From: Trichodesmium erythraeum IMS101 | GTDB lineage: Bacteria; Cyanobacteriota; Cyanobacteriia; Cyanobacteriales; Microcoleaceae | Reading direction: 5' to 3' | Length of the DNA stretch: 32,000 nt | Assembly: GCF_000014265.1 (NCBI RefSeq) | Contig: NC_008312.1 | Span: forward strand, 1,260,001-1,292,000 | Shown here: piece by piece, positions 2,954-22,650 of the stretch | Layout of the letters: every line of letters starts with the position of its first letter | How positions within the stretch are numbered: position 1 is the first letter of the stretch | Made by a program: the position numbers and the translations under genes | Notes under the pieces: generated by a model | What the model saw: the letters and a program-made list of their open reading frames with translations, nothing else | Databases searched by the model: none | What the model was told of the DNA's origin: nothing

Positions 2954-3012
2954 CTGATAAATGATAAATGATAACTAATAACTGATAACTAATAACTGAA
3001 ATAACTGGTAAT
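2954..3012. repeat. Low-complexity run of degenerate short tandem repeats (gataaat / ataacta / ataactg)
   Basis: ctgataaatgataaatgataactaataactgataactaataactgaaataactggtaatc is visible directly. It resembles cyanobacterial STRR-like short repeats. Confidence 0.5.
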
Positions 3013-4285
3013 CATCATTTAAAAATTTATGCCTACATTACAAGTACTAAAAAACATTAAAAAATCACCCCAAATTTTTCTAGAATAAACGAGAATATTT
3101 GGAGTTTCTTGCCCACTATAGTAGGATTATGTTTAATAATTAGTATGATATTTTTGAAGAAAAAAAATATCATTGGTTGGGCTAGTGTCATAAATTAAGT
3201 AATATTTTATTAACTGGATATGAACCAGCTAAACAGGAAAATAATGAGTAGATAGATGAGCATAAATTCTCAGGAAAAGAGGTATGAAGCCTGATAAAAT
3301 TTGACCGTTAATAAATTTAAAAAATTATAATTGAAAAAATTATAATTGAAAAAAAATTGTCTACATCGAAAATACCAATAAATATTGAATTATTCAAAAA
3401 AAAATTCGACATTAACCAGAATATTTAGAGTTTATTGCACCGATATTAGTGATGTTATTACTAAAGACAATAGCCCAGTTAAATTTTAATTTATGAACAA
3501 CAAAAACGATTCTTAACTACTAATTTTTTTTGGTTCCTTTTATACTTATTTACCATTTTTAGCTATTGCCAATATTGGAATATATTTACAGTTACAAGAT
3601 ACCACCATTTGTACTAAATTTTCTCTTCAGTTTACAACTCAAGGTACCGAAGATTGGAGTAACAAAAAAAATCGTTCTTATTTGGGTTGGTATTTTGCTA
3701 AACATCCATAAGTAGCTATTGAACCAGATAATTTCATTCGGCTAATATACAGACATCTATTAAAAACTTACTGAGAGTTCATAGAGAAATAAATAATTTC
3801 TACAATGAACCTCTATTGGATCGAAAACTCCAAAAACTTTTTAGCAATATGGGTAAGATTCCACCTCAAGTAAACCGTGAATATGTTAATTGTTTAGTAG
3901 AAGTACTTTTAACTAATGGAAATAGCGTTGCTTGGTATGCTGAAGGGATATAGAAATCTATAGTAGAAAAATTCGATTCTGAACAAGCACTTACAGCAAT
4001 ACTATCTTTCAATGAATCAAGCATTTCTGCTCGTCTACAACATAAATTATATCAAGAAAAGTTTAAACTTTATTATTGGAAATAATGACAGACTAAAGTT
4101 TATATACAGAGAATAAAAAAATGATTTCAAAGTAACAAAAATACAATCCTTCTTTCAATACAATGAAAAATGATTCAGAAATTAAACGTCAGGTTGAAAA
4201 TTTGAAAAAAATATTATCGTAAATAGATAACTAAATCTAAAAATTAGCAATCTTAATAAAATTGATATTTAAACTGATATTTAAT

Positions 4286-5392
4286 ATGACAAACTCTCTA
4301 TCCAACGAACCCAAACAACATTCTTTATTTAAAAAAATCGAACGAGCGCGACGTCGCCCTACAAAAGTTCGTGACACCAACATTACTCTCGCTTATGGTA
4401 GCGGCGGTAAAGCAATGCGTGACCTCATAGAAGATATTTTTGTCAGCAATTTTGACAACCCTATTCTATCTCAACTAGAAGACCAAGCAACATTTGACCT
4501 GGCAACCTTTACCGCTCAAGGAGACAGACTTGCTTTTACCACCGACTCCTATGTAGTTGACCCCATCTTTTTTCCTGGAGGTAATATTGGTGAACTAGCA
4601 GTCAACGGCACCGTTAACGATCTAGCTGTAAGTGGCGCAAAACCTTTATATCTCTCCTGTGGAATGATTATTGAAGAAGGTTTCCCAGTTGACTCCCTCC
4701 GAAAAATAGCAAAAAGTATGAAAGTTGCAGCAGATGTCGCTGGAGTAAAAATTGTTACAGGAGATACAAAAGTTGTTCCTCAAGGCGCTGCAGACAAATT
4801 ATTTATCAATACTGCGGGGGTGGGTGTAGTTCGCTCTGGTATTTCTATTTCTGCCCAAAATATCCAACCGGGGGATACCGTTATTGTCAATGGTTATCTT
4901 GGAGACCACGGAGCAGCTATTACAGTCGCCCGTGGAGACCTGGCCTTAGCAACGGAAGTCAAAAGCGATACTCAAGCTTTAAATGGTTTGGTCGATATTA
5001 TTCTTGATGTTTGTCTGGAAGTACGGGCGATGCGAGATGCTACCCGTGGCGGTGTAGCAACAGTATTAAATGAATTTGCCATGAGTTCTGAGGTAGGGAT
5101 ACGACTTTTTGAATCTTCTCTACCAGTGCGGGAAGAGGTGCAGGGAGTCTGTGAAATTCTCGGTCTCGACCCTTTATATTTTGCCAATGAAGGTAAGTTA
5201 GTGACAGTGGTGCCCAGAGAAAAGGGGGAAGCTGTTTTGGCAGCAATGAAATCTCATCCTGCGGGTATTGATGCTGCTATTGTGGGGGAAGTTATTGCTT
5301 CTCCCCCCGGAATTTTGTTCTTGCAAACTACATTCGGCACCGAACGCATTGTGGATATGTTGGTAGGAGAACAACTGCCAAGAATTTGTTAG
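4286..5392 (+). CDS. hypE: Hydrogenase maturation protein HypE (carbamoyl dehydratase)
   Basis: The ORF is open from 4262 (TTG); the first ATG is at 4286 (MTNSLSNEPKQ...). PurM/AIR-synthase-like fold motifs are present: AYGSGG, TTDSYVV.P.FFPGG.IG.LAV.GT.NDLA, GDTKV. The invariant C-terminal PRIC is present. Confidence 0.9.
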   Translation: MTNSLSNEPKQHSLFKKIERARRRPTKVRDTNITLAYGSGGKAMRDLIEDIFVSNFDNPILSQLEDQATFDLATFTAQGDRLAFTTDSYVVDPIFFPGGNIGELAVNGTVNDLAVSGAKPLYLSCGMIIEEGFPVDSLRKIAKSMKVAADVAGVKIVTGDTKVVPQGAADKLFINTAGVGVVRSGISISAQNIQPGDTVIVNGYLGDHGAAITVARGDLALATEVKSDTQALNGLVDIILDVCLEVRAMRDATRGGVATVLNEFAMSSEVGIRLFESSLPVREEVQGVCEILGLDPLYFANEGKLVTVVPREKGEAVLAAMKSHPAGIDAAIVGEVIASPPGILFLQTTFGTERIVDMLVGEQLPRIC

Positions 5393-5407
5393 GCAGGAGC
5401 AACACGG

Positions 5408-5600
5408 AAGTCAAAAGTCAAAATTTAGGAAGTCAAAATTTAGAAAGTTAAAAGTCAAAAGTTAGATTTTAATGGTTTAAAACTTGGGAAGTTAAAAGTC
5501 AAAAGTTAGACTTTAATGGTTCAAAATTTTGACGGTTGATCAAAAAAAACTTTTCACTTTCAACTTTTATTTCCCTTCTGCCTTCTGCCTTTCTTTCTCC
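5408..5600. repeat. Composite short-repeat block in the hypE-hypA spacer
   Basis: Iterated aagtcaaaa / agttaaaagtcaaaagtt motifs. Two ~44-bp direct copies: g(a/g)aagttaaaagtcaaaagttaga(t/c)tttaatggtt(t/c)aaaa at ~5443-5486 and ~5487-5530. An inverted partner, aacttttcactttcaactttt, lies at ~5549-5569. ccttctg occurs twice at ~5574-5590. Confidence 0.6.
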
Positions 5601-6309: not shown

Positions 6310-7314
6310 TCAACTTTGTCTAACATATTTTCTAATATCAATTGCCACTGCACTGACAATAATTAATCCCTTAACAATAAATTGTAAATAAGGACTTAAC
6401 TCAATAAATACCAGACCATAATTAATAATTTGGAAAATCAAGACTCCTGTGACAACTCCTGATACAGTACCAATACCTCCGGAAGTAGAAACTCCTCCCA
6501 CTACACAAGCAGCAATGGCATCTAACTCATACATATTACCAGTATTATTAGTGGCACTGCCAACACGACCTGCTTCTAATATTCCAGCAAATCCGTATAA
6601 TAAACCCGCTAAAGTATAAACAATTAATAAATACTTAATAACACTAACACCAGAGACAGTTGCTGCTTCAATATTTCCTCCTATAGCATACATATTTCTG
6701 CCCAAAATAGTTTGATTCCATAAAACCCAAATAACTCCAATTACTATGACTGCATAGATAATTAAATATGGAATTTCAAAGGAACCTAAAATCAAATCAC
6801 CTTGAACAAAAGTAGTAAAATTTTCAGCTAATCCACCAACTGGTTGTGCTCCTAAAGGAGGGCGATCAAAATAAATAGAATTTAATCCATAAATTATAAT
6901 CATTGTTCCTAATGTAGCAATAAAAGGAGGTACTTTAAACATACCTACAACCACTCCATTAATGAACCCAAAAAAAGCACAAATTATCAGAGTAAATAAC
7001 ATCGGAATTATTAAAGGTAATTCCATTAAATTTGGATACATACGGTAAGGATAATCTGCTCCTTGTAATAATGAAGCTGATAATACTGCTCCTACTCCTA
7101 CTATACGTCCTGCAGATAAATCAGTACCTTGAGTAATTAAAACTCCCCCAACACCCAAAGCAATAATAATTCGAGTCGAAGCTTGAGTTAAAATCAGACG
7201 AAAATTATTAACTGTTAAAAAATCAGGTGAAATTATAGTTATAACAATTAACAATAGGATTAACACTAAGTAGATAGCATTATTAAGAGCAAAGTTTATA
7301 ATTTGTTTAATCAT
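6310..7314 (-). CDS. mglC: Galactose/methyl-galactoside ABC transporter permease (MglC-type)
   Basis: 334 aa, multi-pass membrane protein. Long blocks match E. coli MglC as I recall it: TQGTDLSAGR, PPFIATLGTMII.YG, GSATNN.G.MYELDAIAACVVGGVS.SGG.GTV.GVVTGV.IF..INYGL. Confidence 0.85.
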   Translation of the reverse strand: MIKQIINFALNNAIYLVLILLLIVITIISPDFLTVNNFRLILTQASTRIIIALGVGGVLITQGTDLSAGRIVGVGAVLSASLLQGADYPYRMYPNLMELPLIIPMLFTLIICAFFGFINGVVVGMFKVPPFIATLGTMIIIYGLNSIYFDRPPLGAQPVGGLAENFTTFVQGDLILGSFEIPYLIIYAVIVIGVIWVLWNQTILGRNMYAIGGNIEAATVSGVSVIKYLLIVYTLAGLLYGFAGILEAGRVGSATNNTGNMYELDAIAACVVGGVSTSGGIGTVSGVVTGVLIFQIINYGLVFIELSPYLQFIVKGLIIVSAVAIDIRKYVRQS

Positions 7315-7523
7315 TGGTAAATTTAAATATAATTGTTTTTTTGTTCACACCAAAATCTCTCTCAATTTAAATAAGTAAGTCAAAAAAAAATATATTTTTA
7401 AAAGTTTAAAAATTATTTATGAATACTAATTATAATAGTAAGCACTAGTATATTTAGAAAATGAATAAACTTAGAATTACTAAAACTCTTATAGTATGAT
7501 ATTTTCTAATACCAGGACAAGCA

Positions 7524-9053
7524 TTATAAATACAACCCAGATAAACCCATAATTTCCTCTTGAATCCTATTGTTTTGAGTCATTTTTTTTGATTCAACTA
7601 TACCTGCAACTTTACCGTTACTCATAACTAAAATTCTATCAGTAACTCCCAATAATTCTGACATTTCTGAAGATACCATAATAATTCCCATACCTTCATT
7701 AGCTAAATCATTTATTAACTTATATATTTCATATTTAGCCCCCACATCTATCCCTCTTGTTGGCTCATCCAACATCAAAATTTTTGGTTTAGTTAATAAC
7801 CAACGTCCAATTATTACCTTTTGTTGATTTCCACCAGATAATTTCCCAATTAAAGTTTTTTGTGAAGGTGTTTTTACTCCCATTGAATCAATTATTTCTT
7901 GAGTGTGTTGTCGAATTTTTTTTTCGGATAGTAAACCCCAGCTATTCACATAATAATTAATATTAGCAATTGTGGCATTAAAACTTACTGATAAACTATC
8001 AAAAATACCCGTACTTCTTCTCTCTTCAGTTACTAAAGCAAATCCCTGAGAAATCACTTTATTAATTCTAGAATTATCAATTTTTTTACCCTCTAAAAGT
8101 ATTTCTCCTGAACTGACTTTTCTGATGCCAAATATTCCCTCAAGAATATCTGTTCTTTTTGCTCCTACAAGTCCAGCTATTCCTAAAATTTCTCCTGCTT
8201 TTAATTCAAAGTTAATATCCTTAATCGAAGGTTGAGTATAAGCAGTTAAATTTTTAACTTCTAAAATAACCTTACCTAGTTGACAAGTTTTATGAGGAAA
8301 TAAACTAGATAATTTTCTATTAACCATCATCTCTATAATTTCAGATTTGGTTAAATCTTGAGATGGTTTAGTTGCTATACAAAAACCATCTCTCATAATG
8401 GTTATTTCATCAGAAATATTTAAAACTTCCTCAATTTTATGAGAGATATAAATAACTCCTACATTTTGATTTTTTAATTGATTAATAATTGAAAATAAAT
8501 GCTCTACTTCTGTTACCGTTAAAGATGAAGTTGGTTCATCCATGACAATAATTTTAGAATTAGAAGAAACTGCTTTAGCAATTTCTACCAATTGCATTTC
8601 TGATATACTCAAAGAACTAACATTTCGTTTAGGGTTAAGTTCTATACTAAGTTTTTCAAACAGATTTTTAGTATCTTTAAAACACTTTATTGTATCAATA
8701 AATATTCCCTTTATAGGATATCTTCCTAGCCAAATATTATCCATAATATTCATTTGTCTGACTTGATTAAGTTCTTGGTGAACCATTGAAACACCATACC
8801 TTAATGCTTGTTGAGGGCTGAAAATTTTTACCCTTTTTCCAGACAAATAAATTTCACCTGCATCCAACTTATAAATACCAAACAAACATTTCATTAAAGT
8901 TGATTTTCCAGCACCATTCTCACCAACTAATGAATGTACTGTACCAGGTCTCACTTTTAATATTGCTCCAGATAATGCTTGTACTCCAGAAAAAGTTTTA
9001 GAGATATTAGTCATTTCTAAAGCATACTTCGTCTTGAATTCTTCTCCAACCAT
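7524..9053 (-). CDS. mglA: Galactose/methyl-galactoside ABC transporter ATP-binding protein (duplicated ATPase, MglA-type)
   Basis: The ORF is open to a TTG at 9071. The ATG at 9053 gives [21 protein letters not shown], colinear with the MglA N-terminus. Two ABC cassettes: GENGAGKST / LSISEMQ / [10 protein letters not shown] and [16 protein letters not shown] / [15 protein letters not shown]. Confidence 0.9.
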
Positions 9054-9286
9054 ATTATTCTTTTTTCTCAAGTATGTTCCACTAATAATATTTTTAGTAA
9101 TCCCACTATTCGCCCATTAACTAAATTTAAGGAATTCAAGAATAGTGAGATAAGTTTATATAAATATTTATCAGAAATTGAAGTAAATTTATTCTGATAA
9201 TTAAAACAAACAAGCAGTTAAACTTGTGTGAATTTTTTAGTAAAGTAACTACTGATAATAATCCACACTTTACCTAGAACAGAAGT

Positions 9287-10315
9287 CTAATTATAAGCAT
9301 CTTCTGCTACACCCAAATTATCTTTTGTTATAGAAACATAAGGAACTAAGACTGCTTTATTAACATCTAATTTCCATTGAGTATCTGCCAAAATATCTTT
9401 ACCTAAAGCAGCATTAAAAGCCAAATCAAATGTAGCCTTACCCTGATTCTTAGCATCATTTAAAACAGTACCAACAATTTTTCCTTCTCGAATTTTTATT
9501 AACACTTCAGGTATAGCATCAACTCCCACTATTGGAACTAATTTGTTATCTTTAAAATATCCAGCTTTTTCTAAAGATGATAAAGCTCCTAAAGCCATAG
9601 CATCATTATTAGCAATTACTAACTCAATTTTATTACCATACTTAGATATCCAGACATCCATTTTATTAGCAGCTTTTGTAGCATCCCACATAGCTGTATC
9701 AATTGCTAATTTTTCTACCTCAATACCTGCCTTTTTAACCTCATCAATAACATATTTAGTTCGTGCTTCGGCATCTGGATGTCCTGGTTCACCTTTTAAT
9801 AAAACATATTGAATTTTTCCATCTTGATTCAGATCCCATTGTTCTTTATTTTTATTCCATAAATTAGTAATTATTGTACCTTGTATAATTCCAGATTCTT
9901 GAGAATTAGTACCTACATACCAACTCTTTTCATAACTATTTAAAAGTTCTAATTCTGGCTCTTTATTGAAGAAAATCACAGGTAAATTTGCTTTTTTAGC
10001 TTTTGCTATTACTGTTATAGCTGACTTAGGATCTACTAAGTTAATTGCTAAAGCTTTGACTCCCTTAGCAATCATGGTATCAATTTGCTCAAGTTGCTTG
10101 GCTTGATTATTTTGTGAATCATTAATAAATAATCTTGCTTTAGCATTAGCACTTGATTCAATATAACGACGTACATAAGACATAAAGTTATCATCATATT
10201 TGTAAATAGTGACACCTATCTTAATTAAATTTTCCTTGTTATTACTAGTATTTGCTGTACAACCTATAAATAACAGAGATGCTAAAATTGAAGCTATGAA
10301 TAAACTCTTTTTCAT
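9287..10315 (-). CDS. mglB: Galactose/glucose-binding periplasmic protein, lipoprotein form (MglB-type)
   Basis: The ORF is open to 10363. The internal start at 10315 gives [19 protein letters not shown], a signal peptide with a lipobox Cys. Near-identical blocks to E. coli MglB as recalled: [73 protein letters not shown]. Gene order B-A-C matches the enteric operon. Confidence 0.85.
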
Positions 10316-11499
10316 CACAAAAATTCCTAAATTATAATTACTATTATTATCAATTTTTTTCATGGCTTTAAATTTTAAATTATAAAATTGACACTATTTA
10401 TTACTCCTATATATGTAGTAATATTTATAAGTAAATATTTTTTAATCTAAAAAAAAACTACAAAAATTACTGCTTTTATAACACTACTATCAAACTTTCA
10501 TAAATTCTAATTTGAGATAGTTTAGTTTTGAGCAATATCAGGAAATTGTCAGTAAAAAGCTATGCTTTTATTAATTGATCTGAATAATTAATTTTAGATA
10601 AAATAGTATAACTTTTCCTGTTTATACTTGTCAAACTTTTCTGAAGGAAAGATCAAGGTAAAATCGGAAATTAAATCCAAATTATCTGATAAAAATGCCT
10701 GAAAATTAGTTAACATCATAAATAAAAAAAATATAGTGGTTGTTGATAGTCGATATGGATGTACATCCTTAGTCAAAAAAACTGTAGATATTCCTCGCAA
10801 TTAGTTAATAGGCTATATCCTTAGATGTTTTTACGATAAGCCGATAGGTCATAATAGCTGTGGTTGTTCTAGATGATATGGGAAAAATTTTTAACTGAAT
10901 GCTCAAGAAACATCGGTAAAGAGCAAAAGTTATAAAAAAATACAAAAATAGCAATTAGCAACTGAATTGACATCAAAAAAAAATTTACATATCTTAATAT
11001 TCTATTTTTTTAATCTTTCCCTAGATTATATTTGCAACTATTTAGTCTACACTACTAATAATAAATAATAAAACAAATATTTACTATACAGTAAAACATT
11101 TATACTATCGCTAAACTATAAATAATCTGAAAAAAGATAGTATTTTCTATCAAATATTTTTGGAACTTTTCAAAATTTTCTTTTAACTAATTAACCAACC
11201 TAATACCGATTCTCAAAGTTATGAATTTACCTCTAATGAAGTCAAACAATTATCTTTTCGTTTAGACAGTTAATTTTTTCCAACTGAAAATAAATCTAAT
11301 CAAATTTTTTACCTTTTAAAGCTTAATTTCAAGCAGATTTAAGCAGATGATAATTTCTATTATCGCTTATTTACCCAATTATTTCTCTTTTTACGACAAT
11401 ATTAACCCTCTAATCCTTAACACATAATAGTTATTGTCCCAGTCGTAATATAAAAAGGAAAAAAATTAGCGCTTTGGCAACATTTTAGTCTCAAATAAA

Positions 11500-11552: not shown

Positions 11553-12392
11553 ATGTGTGTAACTTGTGGTTGTTCCGGTAATAATGAAGCTACTATTACT
11601 AACTCTCAAACAGGAGAAAAAATAGCAATAAGTAACCATCATCCTCATACCCATACTCTCCCAGATGGTACTGTCATTACTCATACTCATTCTGATAATT
11701 ATACTCCCAAAAATCATAATCATAAAACGGCAGAAGATCATGCCAAAATCCACAAAAATACTATTAGTTTAGAAAAAGAAATTTTACAGAAAAATGACCT
11801 GATAGCTGCCCAAAATAGAGGTTGGTTTAAAGGCCGAAATATTTTGGCTTTAAATTTAGTTAGTTCTCCTGGTTCTGGCAAAACAACTTTATTATCTCGC
11901 ACAATTAATGATTTAAAATCTGATTTGACTTTTAGTGTGATTGAGGGTGACCAAGAAACTATTAATGATGCGGAAAAAATTCGCAAAACTGGTTGTAAAG
12001 TTGTGCAAATTAATACTGGTAAAGGCTGTCACTTGGAAGCTGCAATGGTAGAAAAAGGTTATACAGAATTAAATCCTCCTTTAAATTCAGTTTTGATGAT
12101 TGAAAATGTGGGGAATTTAGTTTGCCCTGCTTTATTTGATTTAGGAGAAAGTTGTAAGGTGGCAATTCTATCAGTTACTGAAGGAGAAGATAAACCGATT
12201 AAATATCCCTATATGTTTCGAGAAAGTCAGGTAATGATTCTGACAAAAATTGATTTATTGCCTTATTTACAGTTTGATTTAAACCGCTGTGTTGAATATG
12301 CAAAGCAGGTAAATCCTCAGATTCGTATTTTTCAGGTTTCTGCTTTTACCGGAGAGGGTTTGAATAAGTGGTATGATTGGTTAAAAAGTTAA
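11553..12392 (+). CDS. hypB: Hydrogenase nickel-incorporation GTPase HypB (with His-rich N-terminal region)
   Basis: MCVTCGCSG is the N-terminal CxxCGC Ni site. A His-rich stretch follows (HHPHTHTLPDGTVITHTHSD...HNHK..DHAKIH). G-domain motifs: SPGSGKTTLL, ENVGNLVCPA, LTKIDL. GGAG lies 9 nt upstream of the ATG. Confidence 0.9.
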   Translation: MCVTCGCSGNNEATITNSQTGEKIAISNHHPHTHTLPDGTVITHTHSDNYTPKNHNHKTAEDHAKIHKNTISLEKEILQKNDLIAAQNRGWFKGRNILALNLVSSPGSGKTTLLSRTINDLKSDLTFSVIEGDQETINDAEKIRKTGCKVVQINTGKGCHLEAAMVEKGYTELNPPLNSVLMIENVGNLVCPALFDLGESCKVAILSVTEGEDKPIKYPYMFRESQVMILTKIDLLPYLQFDLNRCVEYAKQVNPQIRIFQVSAFTGEGLNKWYDWLKS

Positions 12393-12435
12393 ATTATTCT
12401 CGAAAAATTATCAGGTAATCTAAATATTTTATCCT

Positions 12436-12500
12436 AGGGGTTTAGTGTTCATATATCAGGGCGAATGGGATTGAAATACTAAACTCCTACAGCTTTTTTT
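12436..12500 (+). terminator. Possible hypB terminator / structured 3' element
   Basis: An 11-bp stem, AGGGGTTTAGT (12436-12446) / ACTAAACTCCT (12478-12488), with one G:U pair. The loop is 31 nt. ACAGC then T7 (12494-12500) follow. The loop is larger than in a canonical terminator. Confidence 0.35.
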
Positions 12501-12829
12501 ACAAATTATTTTATGTGGTAATCGTGTCTTTAAAAATCAAATTAATGGTATTTTGTTTTGTTGATTTAATTCTAATGGTAATTTAATAAAAATAGGAGAT
12601 TAAATAATATAAGAAAAAAAATCTTTTGCCCCACAAAAAAAATGTAGAAATATCTCAAAAAAAGGCTCGGTTTTCACAGGATATATTCTTGGCAGTAGAG
12701 ATGAGATTAAAAGTTACGTTTTTATCTGAAATTTAATTAATTAATTAATTAATGATGTGAAATTTTTAGAAATAATTCTTTCTCAAATTCCCTAGATTTT
12801 TCTCAACAGATGAATTGTGAAAACTACAC

Positions 12830-15655
12830 GCTGAATAATTCAAAAATAGAATGTTGGGTTTCCATGGCTCAACTCAACCTACGTTTACTATATTTACTAC
12901 TTTTTTACTGGGGTTAATATCAAGCATCCATCTGGAGAGGAATGAGGTTAGACTACCTTTTCAGAGTTTATCTAAAATCTAATAACTATAACGTTGGAGT
13001 TTTTGAGTTAGTCAATTCTTTTCCGGAGGCGTAGAATATGATGGATGTCTCAGTTTGGTTTTCTTAGGGTTACTGAAAAATTTGGGGTTTCCATGGCTCA
13101 AACCCACCTAGGTTTTTACTGGGGTTAATATCAAGCATCCATCTAGAGAGGAATGAGGTTAGGCTACCTTTTCAAAGTTTATCTAAAATCTAATAACTAT
13201 AACGTTGGAGTTTTTGAGTTAGTCAATTCTTTTCCGGAGGCGTAGAATATGATGGATGTCTCAGTTTGGTTTTCTTAGGGTTGCTGAAAAATTTGGGGTT
13301 TCCATGGCTCAACTCAACCTACGTTTACTATATTTACTACTTTTTTACTGGGGTTAATATCAAGCATCCATCTAGAGAGGAATGAGGTTAGGCTACCTTT
13401 TCAAAGTTTATCTAAAATCTAATAACTATAACGTTGGAGTTTTTGAGTTAGTCAATTCTTTTCCGGAGGCGTAGAATATGATGGATGTCTCAGTTTGGTT
13501 TTCTTGGGGTTACTGAAAAATTAGGGGTTTCCATGGCTCAAACCCACCTAGGTTTTTACTGGGGTTAATATCAAGCATCCATCTGGAGAGGAATGAGGTT
13601 AGGCTACTTTTTCAGAGTTTATCTAAAATCTAATAACTATAACGTTGGAGTTTTTGAGTTAGTCAATTCTTTTCCGGAAGCGTAGAACATGATGGATGTC
13701 TCAGTTTGGTTTTCTTAGGGTTGCTGAAAAATTTGGGGTTTCCATGGCTCAAACCCACCTAGGTTTTTACTGGGGTTAATATCAAGCATCCATCTAGAGA
13801 GGAATGAGGTTAGGCTACCTTTTCAAAGTTTATCTAAAATCTAATAACTATAACGTTGGAGTTTTTGAGTTAGTCAATTCTTTTCCGGAGGCGTAGAATA
13901 TGATGGATGTCTCAGTTTGGTTTTCTTAGGGTTGCTGAAAAATTTGGGGTTTCCATGGCTCAACTCAACCTACGTTTACTATATTTACTACTTTTTTACT
14001 GGGGTTAATATCAAGCATCCATCTAGAGAGGAATGAGGTTAGGCTACCTTTTCAAAGTTTATCTAAAATCTAATAACTATAACGTTGGAGTTTTTGAGTT
14101 AGTCAATTCTTTTCCGGAGGCGTAGAACATGATGGATGTCTCAGTTTGGTTTTCTTAGGGTTGCTGAAAAATTTGGGGTTTCCATGGCTCAAACCCACCT
14201 AGGTTTTTACTGGGGTTAATATCAAGCATCCATCTAGAGAGGAATGAGGTTAGGCTACCTTTTCAAAGTTTATCTAAAATCTAATAACTATAACGTTGGA
14301 GTTTTTGAGTTAGTCAATTCTTTTCCGGAGGCGTAGAATATGATGGATGTCTCAGTTTGGTTTTCTTAGGGTTGCTGAAAAATTTGGGGTTTCCATGGCT
14401 CAACTCAACCTACGTTTACTATATTTACTACTTTTTTACTGGGGTTAATATCAAGCATCCATCTAGAGAGGAATGAGGTTAGGCTACCTTTTCAAAGTTT
14501 ATCTAAAATCTAATAACTATAACGTTGGAGTTTTTGAGTTAGTCAATTCTTTTCCGGAGGCGTAGAATATGATGGATGTCTCAGTTTGGTTTTCTTGGGG
14601 TTACTGAAAAATTAGGGGTTTCCATGGCTCAAACCCACCTAGGTTTTTACTGGGGTTAATATCAAGCATCCATCTAGAGAGGAATGAGGTTAGGCTACCT
14701 TTTCAAAGTTTATCTAAAATCTAATAACTATAACGTTGGAGTTTTTGAGTTAGTCAATTCTTTTCCGGAGGCGTAGAATATGATGGATGTCTCAGTTTGG
14801 TTTTCTTAGGGTTGCTGAAAAATTTGGGGTTTCCATGGCTCAACTCAACCTACGTTTACTATATTTACTACTTTTTTACTGGGGTTAATATCAAGCATCC
14901 ATCTAGAGAGGAATGAGGTTAGGCTACCTTTTCAAAGTTTATCTAAAATCTAATAACTATAACGTTGGAGTTTTTGAGTTAGTCAATTCTTTTCCGGAGG
15001 CGTAGAATATGATGGATGTCTCAGTTTGGTTTTCTTGGGGTTACTGAAAAATTAGGGGTTTCCATGGCTCAAACCCACCTAGGTTTTTACTGGGGTTAAT
15101 ATCAAGCATCCATCTGGAGAGGAATGAGGTTAGGCTACTTTTTCAAAGTTTATCTAAAATCTAATAACTATAACGTTGGAGTTTTTGAGTTAGTCAATTC
15201 TTTTCCGGAGGCGTAGAATATGATGGATGTCTCAGTTTGGTTTTCTTGGGGTTACTGAAAAATTAGGGGTTTCCATGGCTCAAACCCACCTAGGTTTTTA
15301 CTGGGGTTAATATCAAGCATCCATCTGGAGAGGAATGAGGTTAGGCTACTTTTTCAGAGTTTATCTAAAATCTAATAACTATAACGTTGGAGTTTTTGAG
15401 TTAGTCAATTCTTTTCCGGAGGCGTAGAATATCATGGATGTCTCAGTTTGGTTTTCTTAGGGTTGCTGAAAAATTTGGGGTTTCCATGGCTCAACTCAAC
15501 CTACGTTTACTCTATTTACTACTTTTTTACTGGGGTTAATATCAAGCATCCATCTGGAGAGGAATGAGGTTAGGCTACCTTTTCAAAGTTTATCTAAAAT
15601 CTAATAACTATAACGTTGGAGTTTTTGAATTGGTATAGCTGAAAAATGTTGGGTG
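12830..15655. repeat. Tandem array A: 13 copies (12 full plus 1 internally deleted) of a 211-bp (S) or 229-bp (L) non-coding unit
   Basis: The landmark TCCATGGCTC occurs at 12861, 13090, 13301, 13530, 13741, 13952, 14181, 14392, 14621, 14832, 15061, 15272 and 15483. Every spacing is exactly 229 or 211 bp. Copies are near-identical by eye. The ORF track shows no ORF of 60 aa or more on either strand. Confidence 0.95.
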
Positions 15656-15918
15656 AAGTCAGATATTAAATTGAGAACTAATTGTTCCTCTAAATTCCTC
15701 TCCCATTCCCTATCTGCTAAGCCAAGTTATTCTTCTCAATGTCTCATATTGGTTCATTCATGAAATAATTACCCTTTAATATCCGCCAACACACCGTTAA
15801 ATTAAAGAGTATAGGTATTGAAAATTGTTGCTCTTAAAATTAAGTAATTTTTCTATTGCTAAACTAGGGTATAAAATATTATTATAGTATAAGAATATAC
15901 TTTTTTGAGGTAAACATT

Positions 15919-17823
15919 ATGGATAATTTTCCGCAAATCGAACCCCCTGCTGAAGGGGAAGCAGTCCAACTTATTGGCCACAACAAGAAAGAGAGTTTTA
16001 TAAATGGATCCGACGATGCTGAGGTTCTGAAGGGTAAAAAGCGTGATGATATTCTCGCTGGCTCCGGTGGAGAAGACTGGCTCTATGGAAAACAAGGTCA
16101 AGACATCCTGCTCGGCGACAACGTACCTGACGAGACTGACTTTGACGCAGATGGCAAGGTAACGGTCAATCATACCTCAATGAATGACTACCTTTTCGGG
16201 AATATTGGTGAGGATACTCTCATTGACCAATTCGGGAGTGACGGTTTAATAGGTGGTCAAGGGAATGATTTGATTATTAGTATGAGTGACTCCAATATTC
16301 CCCAGGAAAATCAGACTATACCAGCCAACGTAGATGATGGTGATGACCTTGCTCGGCTTAATTTTTCTGATACATATATTAATCCAGACAACCTTAGCGC
16401 TAATGACACATTGAAAGGTGGAAAGGAGGCAGATACATTTTCCTTCCAATTATTGATAAATGCTTCAAAAGAAATTGTCGAGAAGCACACTAATGACCAG
16501 GGAGTTACCAACTGGGGAATGAATGGTGTCGCCGGAGAAAATGATAACTACCATGATCATTGGGTGGAAGGCATTGGGCATGATAAAATTATTGACTTTA
16601 ATGCCAAGGAAGGAGACTCAATTAAAGTTTTCGGCCATACAGTACAAAAGCGACTCCTTGAGAATGATGAACAATCTAAAATCGCTGTTATTGGTCTCTA
16701 CAGTGATCAAGGTAATGATGGACAGCGAGGTGGGGGTGCTCATGACCTAGATGTTCTCGGTAAAATTGAAGTGCATTATAAAGGCAAGTTTGACTTTGAT
16801 TCAGATGTTACTGTAGAAAATGAAGATTACGGAGCTTATGGCTTGGACAGTAATGCAATGATTGAGGAATATGATATTCCCAATAAACTGGATGAAGCTA
16901 ATACATCTGACTTTGTCGGAACTAACGGAGATGACGAAATTGAAGGTAATCTTGGCAAAAATAAGATACAAGGTCTTCAAGGTGATGATCATCTTATTGG
17001 CCAAGCGGGGAAAGACAAGTTAGAAGGTTCAGAAGGTGATGATCATCTTATTGGTGATTACATACCTACAGAAGCTGATTACGATGCTGAAGGAGTACTC
17101 GACCTTCCCGAAGATGTAGTCTACGATGACAAACTTTTTGGCGATACAGAATCTGATACTCTTGCCGATCAGTATGGGGATGATAAACTCACAGGAGGTG
17201 ATGGTAATGATAGGTTGATCAGTATTAGTGATAGTAGTATTCCTCGTGAGAACGCTAATATTCCAGCTGGTGTAGATGATGGTGACGACCTTAAGAAGCT
17301 TGATTTTTCCAATGAACTTATCAATCCATATAATACCGCCAGTAAGGATATTTTGACAGGAGGTTCCGGTGCTGATACGTTTGAATGGAATCTTCTTATC
17401 AATGCCTCAAAAGACATTGTCGAGAAGCACACTGATGACGACGAAATCATCAACTGGGGAATGAATGGTGTGGCCGGAGAAAATGATAACTACCATGATC
17501 ATTGGGTTGATGGTATTGGAAAGGATTTAATTATGGATTTCAGTGGACAGGGTGGTGAGGATGATAAGATTATCGTCCGAGGACATACGGTTAAAGTCAA
17601 GCTCTTGAGTGAAACGTCAGATAAGGCAGAGTTAGGTATCTACAGCGACCAAGGTAATGACGGAGAACGAGGTAATGGTGCCCATGATTTTGATGTTCTA
17701 GGAAAAATTGTAGTCAAACATGATGGTAACTTTAACTTTGATAATGATGTACAAGTCGTAGGGGTTGATTATGGTGCCTATGGGAATGGTGCAGAATTAT
17801 ATCAAGTGTTTGGACTTGAATAA
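15919..17823 (+). CDS. Internally duplicated RTX-like (hemolysin-type) calcium-binding repeat protein, function unknown
   Basis: 634 aa, acidic and G/D/N-rich, with no signal peptide. GAGG lies 9 nt upstream of the ATG. RTX-like nonapeptide runs: AGSGGEDWLYGKQGQDILLGD and GNLGKNKIQGLQGDDHLIGQAGKDKLEGSEGDDHLIGD. The two ~314-aa halves are offset by 942 nt. Confidence 0.8.
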   Translation: MDNFPQIEPPAEGEAVQLIGHNKKESFINGSDDAEVLKGKKRDDILAGSGGEDWLYGKQGQDILLGDNVPDETDFDADGKVTVNHTSMNDYLFGNIGEDTLIDQFGSDGLIGGQGNDLIISMSDSNIPQENQTIPANVDDGDDLARLNFSDTYINPDNLSANDTLKGGKEADTFSFQLLINASKEIVEKHTNDQGVTNWGMNGVAGENDNYHDHWVEGIGHDKIIDFNAKEGDSIKVFGHTVQKRLLENDEQSKIAVIGLYSDQGNDGQRGGGAHDLDVLGKIEVHYKGKFDFDSDVTVENEDYGAYGLDSNAMIEEYDIPNKLDEANTSDFVGTNGDDEIEGNLGKNKIQGLQGDDHLIGQAGKDKLEGSEGDDHLIGDYIPTEADYDAEGVLDLPEDVVYDDKLFGDTESDTLADQYGDDKLTGGDGNDRLISISDSSIPRENANIPAGVDDGDDLKKLDFSNELINPYNTASKDILTGGSGADTFEWNLLINASKDIVEKHTDDDEIINWGMNGVAGENDNYHDHWVDGIGKDLIMDFSGQGGEDDKIIVRGHTVKVKLLSETSDKAELGIYSDQGNDGERGNGAHDFDVLGKIVVKHDGNFNFDNDVQVVGVDYGAYGNGAELYQVFGLE

Positions 17824-17984
17824 CTGCCGGGTCGGGTTACATAGACCTGAACTTTCCCTTTGACAAAAAACTATAATATGTGCTATAAAATAGATTTATT
17901 TGGTAAAAAAATATATTTTCCACCTATGACTCTATTTTAAGCTTGATGTCTTAATAGAGAGCTTTTCTCTATGTATGTGGGAAA

Positions 17985-18850
17985 TTTCTCAGGTAGGAGC
18001 GATCGCTACTTTTTCAGAGTTTATCTAAAATCTCATAACTATAACGTTAGAGTTTTTGAGTCAGTTAATTCTGGTCGGGAAGCGTAGAATATGATGAATG
18101 TCTCAATTTGTTTTTCTTGGGGTGGCTGAAAAATGCTTGGTTTCTATGCCTCAAGCCCATCTACATTTATTATGTTTACTACTTTTTGACTGGGGTTAAT
18201 ATCAAGTATCTATCTGGAGAGGAATGAGCGATCGCTACTTTTTCAGAGTTTATCTAAAATCTCATAACTATAACGTTAGAGTTTTTGAGTCAGTCAATTC
18301 TGGTCGGGAGGCGTAGAATATGATGAATGTCTCAATTTGGTTTTCTTGGGGTGGCTGAAAAATGTTGGGTTTCTATGCCTCAAGCCCATCTACGTTTATT
18401 ATGTTTACTACTTTTTGACTGGGGTTAATATCAAGTATCTATCTGGAGAGGAATGAGGTTAGGCTACTTTTTGACTGGGGTTAATATCAAGTATTTATCT
18501 GGAGAGGAATGAGGTTAGGCTGCTTTTTCAGAGTTTATCTAAAATCTCATAACTATAACGTTAGAGTTTTTGAGTCAGTCAATTCTGGTCGGGAGGCGTA
18601 GAATATGATGGATGTCTCAATTTGGTTTTCTTGGGGTGGCTGAAAAATGTTGGGTTTCTATGCCTCAAGCCCATCTACATTTATTATGTTTACTACTTTT
18701 TGACTGGGGTTAATATCAAGTATCTATCTGGAGAGGAATGAGCGATCGCTACTTTTTCAAAGTTTATCTAAAATCTCATAACTATAACGTTAGAGTTTTT
18801 GAGTCAGTTAATTCTGGTCGGGAGGTGTAGAATATGATAGATGTCTCAAA
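17985..18850. repeat. Tandem array B: about 3.7 diverged copies (229-bp type, plus a 56-bp partial re-duplication) of the array A unit, in the same orientation
   Basis: Landmarks GCTACT/GCTGCT occur at 18005, 18234, 18519 and 18748. The units are colinear with array-A L units and roughly 80-90% identical by eye. Three copies carry HIP1 (gcgatcgc) where array A has ggttaggc. Confidence 0.9.
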
Positions 18851-19952
18851 CAGAAGCAACTCTAATTACTACTAACACTACTGCTACACTTCGTCTGAAA
18901 CGAAATTAATAGAGACCAAAACAAAAAGCCAGTAAGAAAATTATAGCTTGGTACTCAGCACCTAGAGTTGTGCTTGGCTTGGGCGTGCATTCATAAAAAC
19001 TGGAAAAAAAAATTATCACCGTTTTTACTTTTATTAGAGTTGTTAGGAATTAAGAAAAAAAAATAACCAGCACCCTTATCAGTTGAGGTTTATAGTGTTT
19101 TTGCTCTAAAATACTGAACAGCTGATATGGTAAGCCTTTAATTATTTTATATTTTCCCAAACCAAACAACTCTATTATATAAAACTTCTAGCTTTTGACT
19201 CTAGCTTTTTGACTTTGGCTTAGTGCTTTCTGTCTTTGTGTCTTCTGTCTTTGAGTTCAAATCTTTGTATTGTTAAATAATGAAAAGCACTATAATTTAA
19301 CAACTACAACCAACCGTACTAAAGACAAACCTCAGCCACACCTGCTCGAGTCATTGCTACCAGAAATAGAGAATTGAAGTCAACCTTTTAGTTAACTTCA
19401 GTAGTTCTCTCCATGCCTGATAAAATCCATATTTTTTTTCAAGTTTCTTGACAAAGGAAAGTAAAATATTTGCTGTCTAAACCTCTATACCTTGCTCCTG
19501 CTAATTAGTTTCATTCCGATCAAACAGAATCATAATTTCTAGATATTTATTACCATCAAACCATTAGAACCAATTCATAGTCCAAACTCATCTCAGTTTT
19601 TCTCCTTTTATCCTTGAAATTGAAAAGCGATCGCCTCAAAGTTTCACTAATTTATTACTATTGACCCCACAAAAACTGAAACATTCTCTGTTCATATTTA
19701 AGAATATATGTATGATTTATATATTTATACTAAAAAAAACTATTTAGGTCATGCTGCGCAAAAAAATGCATCAAAGTAATAAATTGCTAAGTTTATCTAA
19801 TCATCTGGGTTAGGGGTAGGTCCCCTAGTTCTTAAAAAAACTTTTTCAGCAAAACCAAATTACATTTTCATTTTATTTAAACAATTACTATACAGCAGAT
19901 TTAATTGAGAGTTAATTATAGTTTTCCCAACTAAGATATCAGGGTAAAAAAG

Positions 19953-20891
19953 TTAATTTCTATCCTCAAAACCCACCACTTCAGATAAAGTATAAAGAGG
20001 TCTACCTTTTACTTCTTCATAAATTCTTCCGATGTATTCTCCTAAAATTCCAATACTTACTAATTGTACTGCTCCTAAAAAGAAGATTGCCATCATAATA
20101 ATTGCCAAACCCGTTAACGGAGAATTTGGATAAAAAATCCGCCAATATAAAACCAAACAAGCCATCAATAAAGCCACACAAGCAGCAAATAATCCTACAT
20201 AAGTAGACAGTCGTAAAGGTACCTTAGAAAAAGACACCAAACCATTAATTGCTAAAGTTAAAGATTTCGCAAAAGTATATTGAATATTTCCAGCAAAACG
20301 AGGTTCCCTCTCAAACTTAATTGCTGTTTGTCGAAAACCAACCCATGCCCTTAAACCCCGAATATAACGATTAGTTTCTGGCATTTTATTTAACAGATCT
20401 ACTACACATCTATCCATCAAACAAAAATCACCCGTATCAATAGGAATTTCCACATCTGCCAAACGTTTTAAAACTCGATAATAAATAAAAGCAGGAAGTC
20501 TTTTAAACCAACTTTCTTGATGTCTTTTTGTCCGTTGAGCATAGACAACTTGATAACCCTGTCGCCACTTTTCAATTAAGTCAGGAATTAATTCCGGTGG
20601 GTCTTGCAAATCTCCATCTAAAACTACAATAACTTCCCCCCTAGCAAAATTTAAACCAGCAGTAACAGCAATTTGATGTCCGAAGTTACGAGCAAAACTT
20701 AAATAACAAATTCGAGGATCTTTTCGATGGAATTCTCGGATAATTTCGAGAGAGCGATCGCGACTCCCATCATTAATCAAAATTAATTCTACATCTCCAT
20801 CTATTCTCTCCATAACTGCACTGAGCCGCCGATATAACTCAGGCAAATTTTTTTCTTCATTATAAATAGGAATTACTAAAGAATATTTCAT
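19953..20891 (-). CDS. Family-2 glycosyltransferase, polyprenyl-phosphate sugar transferase type (GtrB/ArnC/DPM1-like)
   Basis: N-terminal [13 protein letters not shown], then INDGS.D, a DGDLQDP (DxD) motif, and two C-terminal TM helices. This is the typical architecture of the family. Confidence 0.85.
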
Positions 20892-22028: not shown

Positions 22029-22650
22029 TTATCTATCAAAAAAATTAGCCCTCACCAAAACTTGAATGGAGTTTTCAAAATTAAAAACCCGTTCTGATGA
22101 CAACAGAGACTGCAAAACAAATTCACAGTTTGAGCAAGTTTGAGAACAAGAATTTCTTCTATAGACTTCTCCAAAAATACCAATTTGGTAACGGTGGGTT
22201 AAAGTATTGAAAACCTTTTTTGGAGATATTTTATCAACAACTATTAGTTGCGAGCCATATAGTTTGCACTTATACTTGTGCCTGGCTACGAAACTCATAG
22301 AGCCCATATAAATACTCACCTCTATTGCTCCCCTACCAGCGAGGAGATGGGGGTAGGTTATGGTTAGCTATTCTACCTGAACAGAACAGTTTTCTATTGC
22401 TATCTAGCTATAGTTAAGAGCCAAATAAGTAGTTAATTTATGTAATAGAGTTACCGCTCAAGAGAGAGATAAAATCGCTCCAAACTAGACAGAGCAATAA
22501 TTTTAAGTTTTTTTAGTCGGCAATAGCTATAATCTTTACTGAACTTGGTTTTTGGTTATTTTTTAAGTTATAAACAGACAAATCTAATGTGTTTTTTCTC
22601 ATGTCAGCTATTTTGTTGTCTACTTGATCTACGTTAAGTCGAGCTTTTTT
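22029..22650 (-). pseudogene. Relic of the C-terminal half of an IS200/IS605-family TnpB (OrfB) gene
   Basis: Minus-strand translation gives VDNKIADMRKNTLDLSVYNL...KIIAIAD*KNL (compare the TnpB blocks ..IAN.RKD.LHKL...L and ..I.IEDLNV). In the 96-aa ORF it gives FVARHKYKCKLYGSQLIVVDK and SQTCSNCEFVLQSLLSSERVFNFENS (compare YKC..YGS.LI..DR and SKTCS.CG......LS.R.F.C..CG). There are stops, frame changes and mutated Zn-finger Cys residues. The N-terminal half is absent. Confidence 0.55.

Follow-up and report, generated by a model that had tools for sequence, protein, structure and literature searches.

Non-coding tandem repeats are typical of filamentous cyanobacteria, in which the short and long tandemly repeated repetitive sequences (STRR and LTRR) are dispersed genome-wide. 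Large non-coding tandem arrays are rare in bacteria, Trichodesmium being the outstanding exception. In the NsiR1 array of heterocystous cyanobacteria the units are much shorter than the 211/229-bp units described below, and each contains a promoter, a small RNA (sRNA) of about 60 nt and a terminator. NsiR1, whose array is located upstream of hetF (Ionescu et al., 2010, as cited in PMC6596454), is the textbook cyanobacterial sRNA encoded in a tandem array. The genome of the marine nitrogen fixer Trichodesmium erythraeum IMS101 has been finished as a single chromosome of 7,750,108 nt, is 40% non-coding and carries further large tandem arrays. In one of them, next to Tery_0080 (the Tery_0080 array), seven tandem repeats of 736-973 bp extend over more than 6 kb and are highly transcribed, and expression of repeats is a common feature of the genome (Pfreundt et al., 2014; PMC4143802). 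Here we describe a 32,000-nt stretch of the IMS101 chromosome (NC_008312.1, positions 1,260,001 to 1,292,000, forward strand; hereafter the window, with coordinates counted from its first letter), in which two blocks of one repeat family, arrays A and B, lie on either side of Tery_0803, a gene coding for a 634-aa RTX-type calcium-binding protein. The locus is bounded by hypB and by a gene for a family-2 glycosyltransferase (GT2).

Our analysis indicated that this locus is probably a lineage-specific, non-coding macrosatellite of T. erythraeum, split around Tery_0803, which evolves by unequal recombination and acts as a substrate for duplication of the gene. Both arrays are head-to-tail copies of one unit in one orientation, and they are satellite-like in having a higher-order period and private fixed variants. 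The locus resembles the Tery_0080 array of the same genome in being kilobase-scale, non-coding and head-to-tail, in occupying a long intergenic region, in having a sequence found nowhere else, and in combining near-identical interior units with a divergent edge unit (repeat 0 of the Tery_0080 array is about 87% identical). It differs from it in that the Tery_0080 units are 3-4 times longer, unrelated in sequence and not split by a gene, and in that the present locus is missing from the published 20 top transcription start sites (TSS) and three further non-coding RNA (ncRNA) TSS (PMC4143802). With STRR and LTRR it has in common the non-coding tandem organization, and STRR-like heptamers occur elsewhere in the window. 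Unlike those repeats, which have periods of 7-22 bp in the window, the present family has units of 211/229 bp and is known only from the hypB-GT2 locus.

The relationship between the two arrays was established by unit alignment. An 18-mer shared by both occurred 17 times in the window versus none in 100 shuffles, all copies of the landmark sequence used to count units lay on the forward strand, and mean unit identity was 97.3% within A, 96.2% within B and 86.4% between A and B. Sixteen alignment columns were fixed differently in A and B. An earlier note on this stretch, made from its letters alone, had recognized B as a second block of the array-A unit in the same orientation, about 80-90% identical to A, and had proposed that each block was homogenized separately. 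The alignment confirmed the former, placing both blocks in one family rather than leaving B unrelated to A, and the difference between within-array and between-array identities, together with the 16 fixed columns, supports the latter. The consensus of the long A units and that of B differed in 29 of 229 columns, the longest identical run being 28 nt, which is roughly chance level. Since these differences are about evenly spread, no segment of the unit stands out as constrained.

Array A consists of a leading partial unit and 12 full units (seven of 211 bp and five of 229 bp), and is closed by a truncated unit that has lost an internal segment. The landmark TTTATCTAAAATCT is present in 13 copies, all of them on the forward strand, with spacings of 211/229/211/211/229/211/229/211/229/211/211/229. 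Tandem Repeats Finder (TRF) delimited this array at 12902-15628, with scores of 4371-4401 (880-1070 for B), and reported a period of 211 bp (12.5 copies) and one of 440 bp (6.2 copies); the latter, corresponding to 211+229, gave 95% matches versus 91% at the monomer period and represents a higher-order period. Four of the five long units were identical base for base, the short units were 0-8 substitutions apart, and the longest exact repeats measured 501 bp (at offset 440) and 512 bp (at offset 1091). These exact repeats and the identical long units point to very recent block duplications at the dimer register. Array A is also bounded by a 10-bp direct repeat, AATGTTGGGT (Table 1). At the equivalent position interior A units bear one of two derived sequences, AATTTGGGGT or AATTAGGGGT; AATGTTGGGT itself is retained in B units and in the A' array found in a relative (see below). 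Edge copies that escape homogenization are a familiar property of satellite arrays.

Array B contains about 3.7 units. Its start is degenerate; three units of the long type follow, measuring 229, 285, and 229 bp, and the last unit breaks off after GATGTCTCAA. TRF reported it at 17997-18757 with periods of 229 and 285, and TTTATCTAAAATCT was found in four copies on the forward strand (18020, 18249, 18534, and 18763; spacings 229/285/229). The landmarks chosen in the earlier note lie 15 bp upstream of these and their spacings are identical. The extra 56 bp in the second unit had been read as a partial internal re-duplication, and it was recovered as such by TRF (18408-18528, period 56, 2.2 copies), by the unit alignment and in an independent metagenome contig (L006), which shows the same 285-bp spacing. 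All B units were correctly described as being of the long type, as they contain the 18-nt segment that defines it, and the replacement of an A-unit octamer by the HIP1 octamer was verified in the three B copies where it had been noticed (Table 1). The overall architecture was confirmed as well, with 264 bp from the end of A at 15654 to the ATG at 15919 and about 163 bp from the stop codon at 17823 to the beginning of B at around 17987, and each detail of the earlier observation that was checked proved correct.

These features show the arrays to grow, shrink and homogenize via unequal homologous recombination or slippage between units, which explains the 440-bp period, the identical long units, the array-specific fixed variants and the less homogenized edge units. 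Recombination of a similar kind also appears to act between the arrays. RecA-dependent unequal recombination between flanking direct repeats, such as rrn operons or insertion sequence (IS) copies, amplifies or deletes the genes between them, as is well known from classic bacterial genetics, and in eukaryotes segmental duplications and satellites undergo non-allelic homologous recombination. As direct repeats 86% identical over 0.85-2.8 kb, A and B act as substrates for such non-allelic homologous recombination around the 2.3-kb gene segment, as shown by the scaffold of one relative (see below). A crossover between B and A would duplicate the gene and leave a B-to-A hybrid array between the two copies.

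An arrangement of this type was found in a relative. Scaffold JAKQYD010000084 (L015) belongs to the short-read metagenome-assembled genome (MAG) Trichodesmium sp. MAG_R01, and its flanks share 98.2% identity with the window. The scaffold contains, in this order, hypB, an array A' with private variants and a 100-N gap, a first RTX copy, 13 repeat units without N, and a second RTX copy cut by the contig end. Units 1-6 of the 13 are B-type at the 16 diagnostic sites and 229 bp each; units 7-12 are purely A-type and 211-212 bp long, the final one 230 bp; and unit 13 is the truncated terminal unit that closes array A in IMS101. There is a single sharp B-to-A switch, located inside the unit starting at L015:13230, the B-type part being 95.0% identical to IMS101 B and the A-type part 97.3% identical to IMS101 A. 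Over its first 281 nt copy 2 matched Tery_0803 at 98.2% identity, just as the flanks match the window, versus 87% for copy 1 in that region, and judged by this sequence copy 2 is the Tery_0803 orthologue. Copy 1 has flanks of the hypB-locus type, and its coding sequence is 98-100% identical to an RTX paralogue that lies without arrays at a second locus (locus 2, contigs L016-L019). Because the three gene versions are visibly mosaic (see below), gene conversion between paralogues appears the likeliest origin of the copy 1 sequence. On this one scaffold, the arrangement corresponds to the duplication product that would be expected from an unequal crossover of B of one chromosome copy with A of another.

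The earlier note had proposed that orthologous loci might reveal alleles with the gene multiplied, and this scaffold with two RTX copies is such an allele; of its claim that the arrays are a substrate for deletion or amplification, the amplification part is supported by L015, one short-read scaffold. The case is like known repeat-mediated amplifications in that kilobase direct repeats flank the gene and the predicted two copies with a hybrid repeat between them are seen. Unlike in the rrn and IS cases, the flanking repeats are themselves tandem arrays with a higher-order period, their identity of only 86% is low for efficient RecA-mediated exchange, and the event is inferred from a relative. 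Repeat-driven rearrangement here is a tidy, not a surprising, case. Its significance would lie in eukaryote-style satellite behavior in a bacterium (higher-order period, within-array concerted evolution, poorly homogenized edge units), linked to copy-number change of a gene for a putatively secreted calcium-binding protein in natural populations. As short-read assemblies collapse or break the arrays, copy-number variation of the RTX gene is invisible in most Trichodesmium MAGs.

Contigs of the T. erythraeum clade provided further structural alleles. A group of them (L009-L014, L024-L033, and L043), 99.1-99.8% identical to IMS101 in the flanks, have its A left, A right, and B left boundaries; their array A has either been assembled into one or two units or is cut by the contig end. 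The junctions between the end of A and the gene and between the gene and the start of B were reproduced at 99.7-100% identity in three independent metagenome contigs (L006-L008). At the right edge of B, three alleles were distinguished among contigs encoding an identical GT2 protein. In the first (L012, L043, and L037), the last unit extends to ...TTCAACCCAACCT and is followed by a 545-bp unique segment absent from IMS101, which is non-coding and is situated between B and the right flank (8380-8925 in L012); in the second (L038), only the last 290 bp of this segment are kept; and in the third (IMS101 and L039-L041), the segment is absent and the unit is cut at the junction of GATGTCTCAA and ACAGAAGC. 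In contigs L032 and L033 (St11_bin5 type), the RTX gene is broken after 162 codons by the insertion of an IS630-family element (from about position 4135, window equivalent 16372), which suggests that the gene is dispensable. With three alleles at the right edge of B and an insertion within the gene in one strain, the structure of the locus is not completely fixed.

Several points weigh against the macrosatellite reading. The duplication is seen in a single MAG scaffold, assembled from short reads and with an N-gap in A', and the identity of its copy 1 with the paralogue of another locus fits gene conversion, yet some chimerism has to be allowed for. No gene-less deletion allele was found among about 22 hypB-bearing contigs or among the GT2 contigs. 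Array copy numbers in relatives are unreadable, since in short-read assemblies the arrays are either reduced to one or two units or interrupted by a contig end. The lack of a function for the units is an argument from absence. A 33-nt core of the unit occurs twice without a mismatch in another contig (L020, see below), which at the divergence of that contig would not be expected of neutrally evolving DNA; this alone among the observations hints at a function or mobility for part of the unit.

The first of these points leads to a rival view, namely that the MAG_R01 duplication arose as a chimera during assembly or scaffolding, from two strains that co-occurred or from the two paralogous loci, for example, and that the locus is stable but for small indels. 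The short-read origin and the 100-N gap of the scaffold, the near-identity of the copy 1 coding sequence to the locus-2 paralogue and the misassembly-prone nature of tandem arrays would all be compatible with it. However, no N interrupts the sequence that leads from copy 1 across 13 distinguishable units into copy 2, and only 18 identical bases are common to A and B at the switch, so that spanning reads would have been needed to join them. Moreover, copy 1 has flanks of the hypB-locus type, and independent structural alleles exist at the hypB-GT2 locus. We consider a chimera unlikely, though it deserves to be kept in mind.

The same holds for a functional role of each unit. The repeat units are non-coding: the longest open frame in either array has 55 codons versus 94 ± 19 in shuffles, and neither 211 nor 229 is a multiple of 3. 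Minimum free energy z-scores of the units ranged from -1.4 to +1.5 on both strands, and RNAalifold applied to 10 distinct units gave a covariation term of -1.06 kcal/mol and one compensatory pair of 60. Across the window Rfam gave no match at the gathering threshold; with E <= 10 the array and L020 yielded only noise, the best scores being 15-22 bits versus cut-offs of 60-76. A consensus scan detected no terminator-like sites inside either array, and it found 22 promoter-like sites versus 21 ± 5 expected from shuffles. Most likely the units are without sequence-specific cellular function, and we infer that they persist because the IMS101 genome tolerates 40% non-coding DNA.

Alternatively, the units could be ncRNA genes or promoters, one per unit, as in the NsiR1 or Tery_0080 arrays, or a multi-copy binding or promoter module feeding Tery_0803. 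All units lie on the strand of the gene, the pair TAGTCA-17-TAGAAT is present in A units only, TAAAAT occurs in every unit inside the most conserved core, and this core is perfectly kept in two tandem copies at another locus of a sister-clade contig. In addition, many intergenic repeats are transcribed in T. erythraeum (PMC4143802; PMC6596454). Nevertheless, conservation of the TAGTCA box does not extend to B, TAGAAC stands in two of the A units, promoter-like sites are no commoner than in shuffles, the A/B substitutions are evenly spread, and the locus does not figure among the published TSS mentioned above. Unlike those of NsiR1, the present units have no terminator, no thermodynamic or covariation signal and no Rfam match. 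On balance, this explanation appears a minority possibility.

A related proposal starts from the distribution of the core. A scan for the 18-mer in one genome for each of 185,579 species returned only five isolated chance matches, in Firmicutes and Chloroflexi MAGs and none of them cyanobacterial, IMS101 being evidently not searchable there; plasmid, phage, and viral collections gave nothing or chance matches only. Of two metagenome scans the first was empty, and from JGI metagenomes a single contig was retrieved, CAJICP010000120.1 (L020), that has the core only, the rest of the unit not being shared. The core, ATCTAAAATCTAATAACTATAACGTTGGAGTT (33-35 nt), is found there at 1092-1124 and 1173-1207, 81 bp apart, 100% identical, intergenic, and at a different locus. 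This contig belongs to the Okeania/Trichodesmium clade, as a mannose-1-phosphate guanylyltransferase fragment that it encodes shares 91-94% identity with Okeania and Trichodesmium proteins. The unit may have been built around a functional 33-nt module (a promoter with the 5' end of a transcript, or a protein-binding site) that is conserved in the clade and prone to amplification; the arrays would then be a multi-copy regulatory or ncRNA locus, with strain-variable array and RTX copy number arising by recombination. If true, repeat number would act as a "rheostat" for a putatively secreted surface protein. We hold this to be rather doubtful.

A more distant Trichodesmium lineage bears on another alternative, put forward in the earlier note, according to which the gene cassette was inserted into a pre-existing continuous array, splitting A from B. 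In this lineage the protein (P0041) is 88% identical to Tery_0803, and the DNA of the contigs (L034-L036) shows an identity of about 89-93%. There 580 bp separate the RTX gene from hypB and array A is missing: the left flank, as far as approximately window position 12528, directly joins a 32-nt piece of the unit, CTTTCTTAGGGTTGCTGAAAAATATTGGGT, and then the post-array spacer. Downstream, L036 shows unit-like sequence, TAATCTAATAACTGTAACGTTGGAGTTTTTGAGTAGG..., directly after the post-gene spacer, where L034 and L035 have an inverted-repeat element resembling a miniature inverted-repeat transposable element (MITE). The latter is about 95 nt long, with terminal inverted repeats AGGACTTACGCAGT...ACGTAAGTCCT, and lies both upstream and downstream of the RTX gene (1838-1935 and 4046-4132 in L034). 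The unit-derived sequences on both sides of the gene indicate that it sat between them before the lineages split, and the 32-nt fragment, which is fuller than the truncated last unit of IMS101, implies at least one complete unit upstream in the ancestor. The public metagenome contigs L035 (2922-2949) and L036 (1-45) end in Nextera adapter sequence (CTGTCTCTTATACACATCT...), an assembly artefact and not biology.

The presence of one repeat family on both sides of the gene in the same orientation would agree with an insertion, and so would the occurrence of the 2.0-kb block at 15840-17840 at another locus, which means that the gene was moved or copied at some time. However, the phases of the arrays do not join, as A ends at about column 135 of the unit and B resumes at about column 220 (in L036, at column 22 of the next unit). 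The shared block stops within unique spacers, leaving 185 and 153 bp to the arrays. A search for inverted repeats, a target duplication or a transposase found none, and in the distant lineage the gene occupies this site with no more than 32 nt of a unit before it. Given the mismatched phases, the missing target duplication and a shared block that stops short of the arrays, a simple insertion into a continuous array is not supported, and we regard it as quite improbable. It is very hard to believe, finally, that each unit encodes a micro-peptide (MMDVSVWFS...): although a GGAGG Shine-Dalgarno motif stands 9 nt upstream of the ATG in every unit, the stop position is polymorphic (9 or 12 codons), the ATG is replaced by ATC in one unit, and all seven substitutions in the first nine codons, the ATG-to-ATC change included, alter the residue, with none synonymous.

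Other classes of element were considered and rejected. The 211/229-bp units abut without spacers, which is not the organization of a CRISPR array. A template/variable repeat pair of a diversity-generating retroelement was discarded because the 37 differences between an A unit and a B unit involve all four bases and are not specific to adenine (A 7, C 9, G 11, and T 10). A transposon or mobile cassette carrying the gene was discarded as well, in view of no meaningful inverted repeats in 12300-19500 and no transposase open reading frame (ORF) from hypB to GT2. The DIF+ motif TCCGGA in the A units was treated as a coincidence, being 4 nt from the nearest -10-like box and absent from B.

The gene enclosed by the arrays is RTX-like, as had been predicted. 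Its product matched Pfam HemolysinCabind (PF00353) with E = 4e-22 in five stretches and contains the GGxGxDxUx nonapeptide repeat; in NCBIfam, repeat regions of RTX and serralysin proteins were matched in part, with scores that in every case remained far under the family cut-offs. The protein is formed by two 317-aa halves, 58% identical to each other, and has homologues in other cyanobacteria and in marine Rhodobacteraceae. No component of a type I secretion system was recognized among six ORFs scanned against Pfam, the remaining ORFs of the window being judged only by reading their translations; the ABC transporter encoded at 6310-10363 is of the sugar-uptake type. Comparison with locus 2 showed that the spacer segment 15655-15839 is locus-specific and that 15840-15918 is common to both loci; the latter segment probably holds the promoter and 5' untranslated region of Tery_0803. 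When compared in 100-bp windows, the gene versions of the window (15840-17840), of locus 2 and of L015 (10001-11899) were mutual mosaics, a pattern that indicates gene conversion. Between strains, the RTX gene region was 98.4-98.9% identical versus 99.3-99.8% for the flanks, the gene being the more diverged.

Table 1. Coordinates in the window of the arrays, the RTX gene and their surroundings, with the basis for each assignment.
Feature	Position	Strand	Basis
Array A	12850-15654	+	TRF; unit alignment
AATGTTGGGT, left copy of the 10-bp direct repeat bounding A	12850-12859	+	Sequence reading
AATGTTGGGT, right copy of the 10-bp direct repeat bounding A	15645-15654	+	Sequence reading
Array B	17987-18849 (start approximate)	+	TRF; alignment; right boundary versus L012, L037, and L038
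Extra 56-bp copy, internal partial duplication in B unit 2	18465-18520	+	TRF; alignment; L006
HIP1 octamer GCGATCGC replacing A-unit GGTTAGGC	17999-18006, 18228-18235, 18742-18749		Sequence; alignment
Unique spacer upstream of Tery_0803	15655-15918	+	BLAST of L016-L019 versus window; boundary alignment
Tery_0803 (ABG50220), 634-aa RTX-type calcium-binding protein	15919-17823	+	Exact match; Pfam HemolysinCabind
Block 94-95% identical to locus 2 (L016-L019)	15840-17840	+	BLAST; boundary alignment; mosaic identity pattern
Terminator-like hairpin directly after the Tery_0803 stop	17832-17850	+	Consensus scan only
hypB (Tery_0802, ABG50219), left flank	11553-12392	+	Exact match; Pfam cobW/HypB
Family-2 glycosyltransferase GT2 (Tery_0804, ABG50221), right flank	19953-20891	-	Exact match; Pfam

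Three proteins of the window, those of Tery_0802, Tery_0803, and Tery_0804, were exact matches to GenBank entries of T. erythraeum IMS101 (ABG50219, ABG50220, and ABG50221). No mention of Tery_0802 or Tery_0803 was found in the papers searched, the sole locus-tag match being Tery_0804, which appears once in a 2007 comparative paper on envelope-related genes. The window, with a GC content of about 35%, also contains hypF, hypD, hypE, and hypA, the sugar ABC transporter genes, tenA, a gene for a pentapeptide protein and def; a search for tRNA and tmRNA genes found none. The sugar ABC transporter genes form a three-gene operon (6310-10363, reverse strand) with a GC content of 28-29% versus 36-38% in its neighbors; located between hypA and hypB on the opposite strand, it splits the hyp cluster, and this arrangement is kept in all related contigs. 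Heptamer-based STRR-type tandem repeats (TGATAAC; AAGTCAA and derivatives) are present in intergenic positions among the hyp genes, at 2948-2999 and 5406-5526. The regions 18850-19950 and 3000-4260 are kilobase-scale AT-rich DNA without ORFs of 80 aa or more, typical of the large non-coding fraction of IMS101. Finally, a 96-aa ORF (22029-22319, reverse strand), whose 92-aa counterpart in related contigs gave a faint match to a Cas12f1-like/TnpB zinc finger, is probably a remnant of an IS605-family element.

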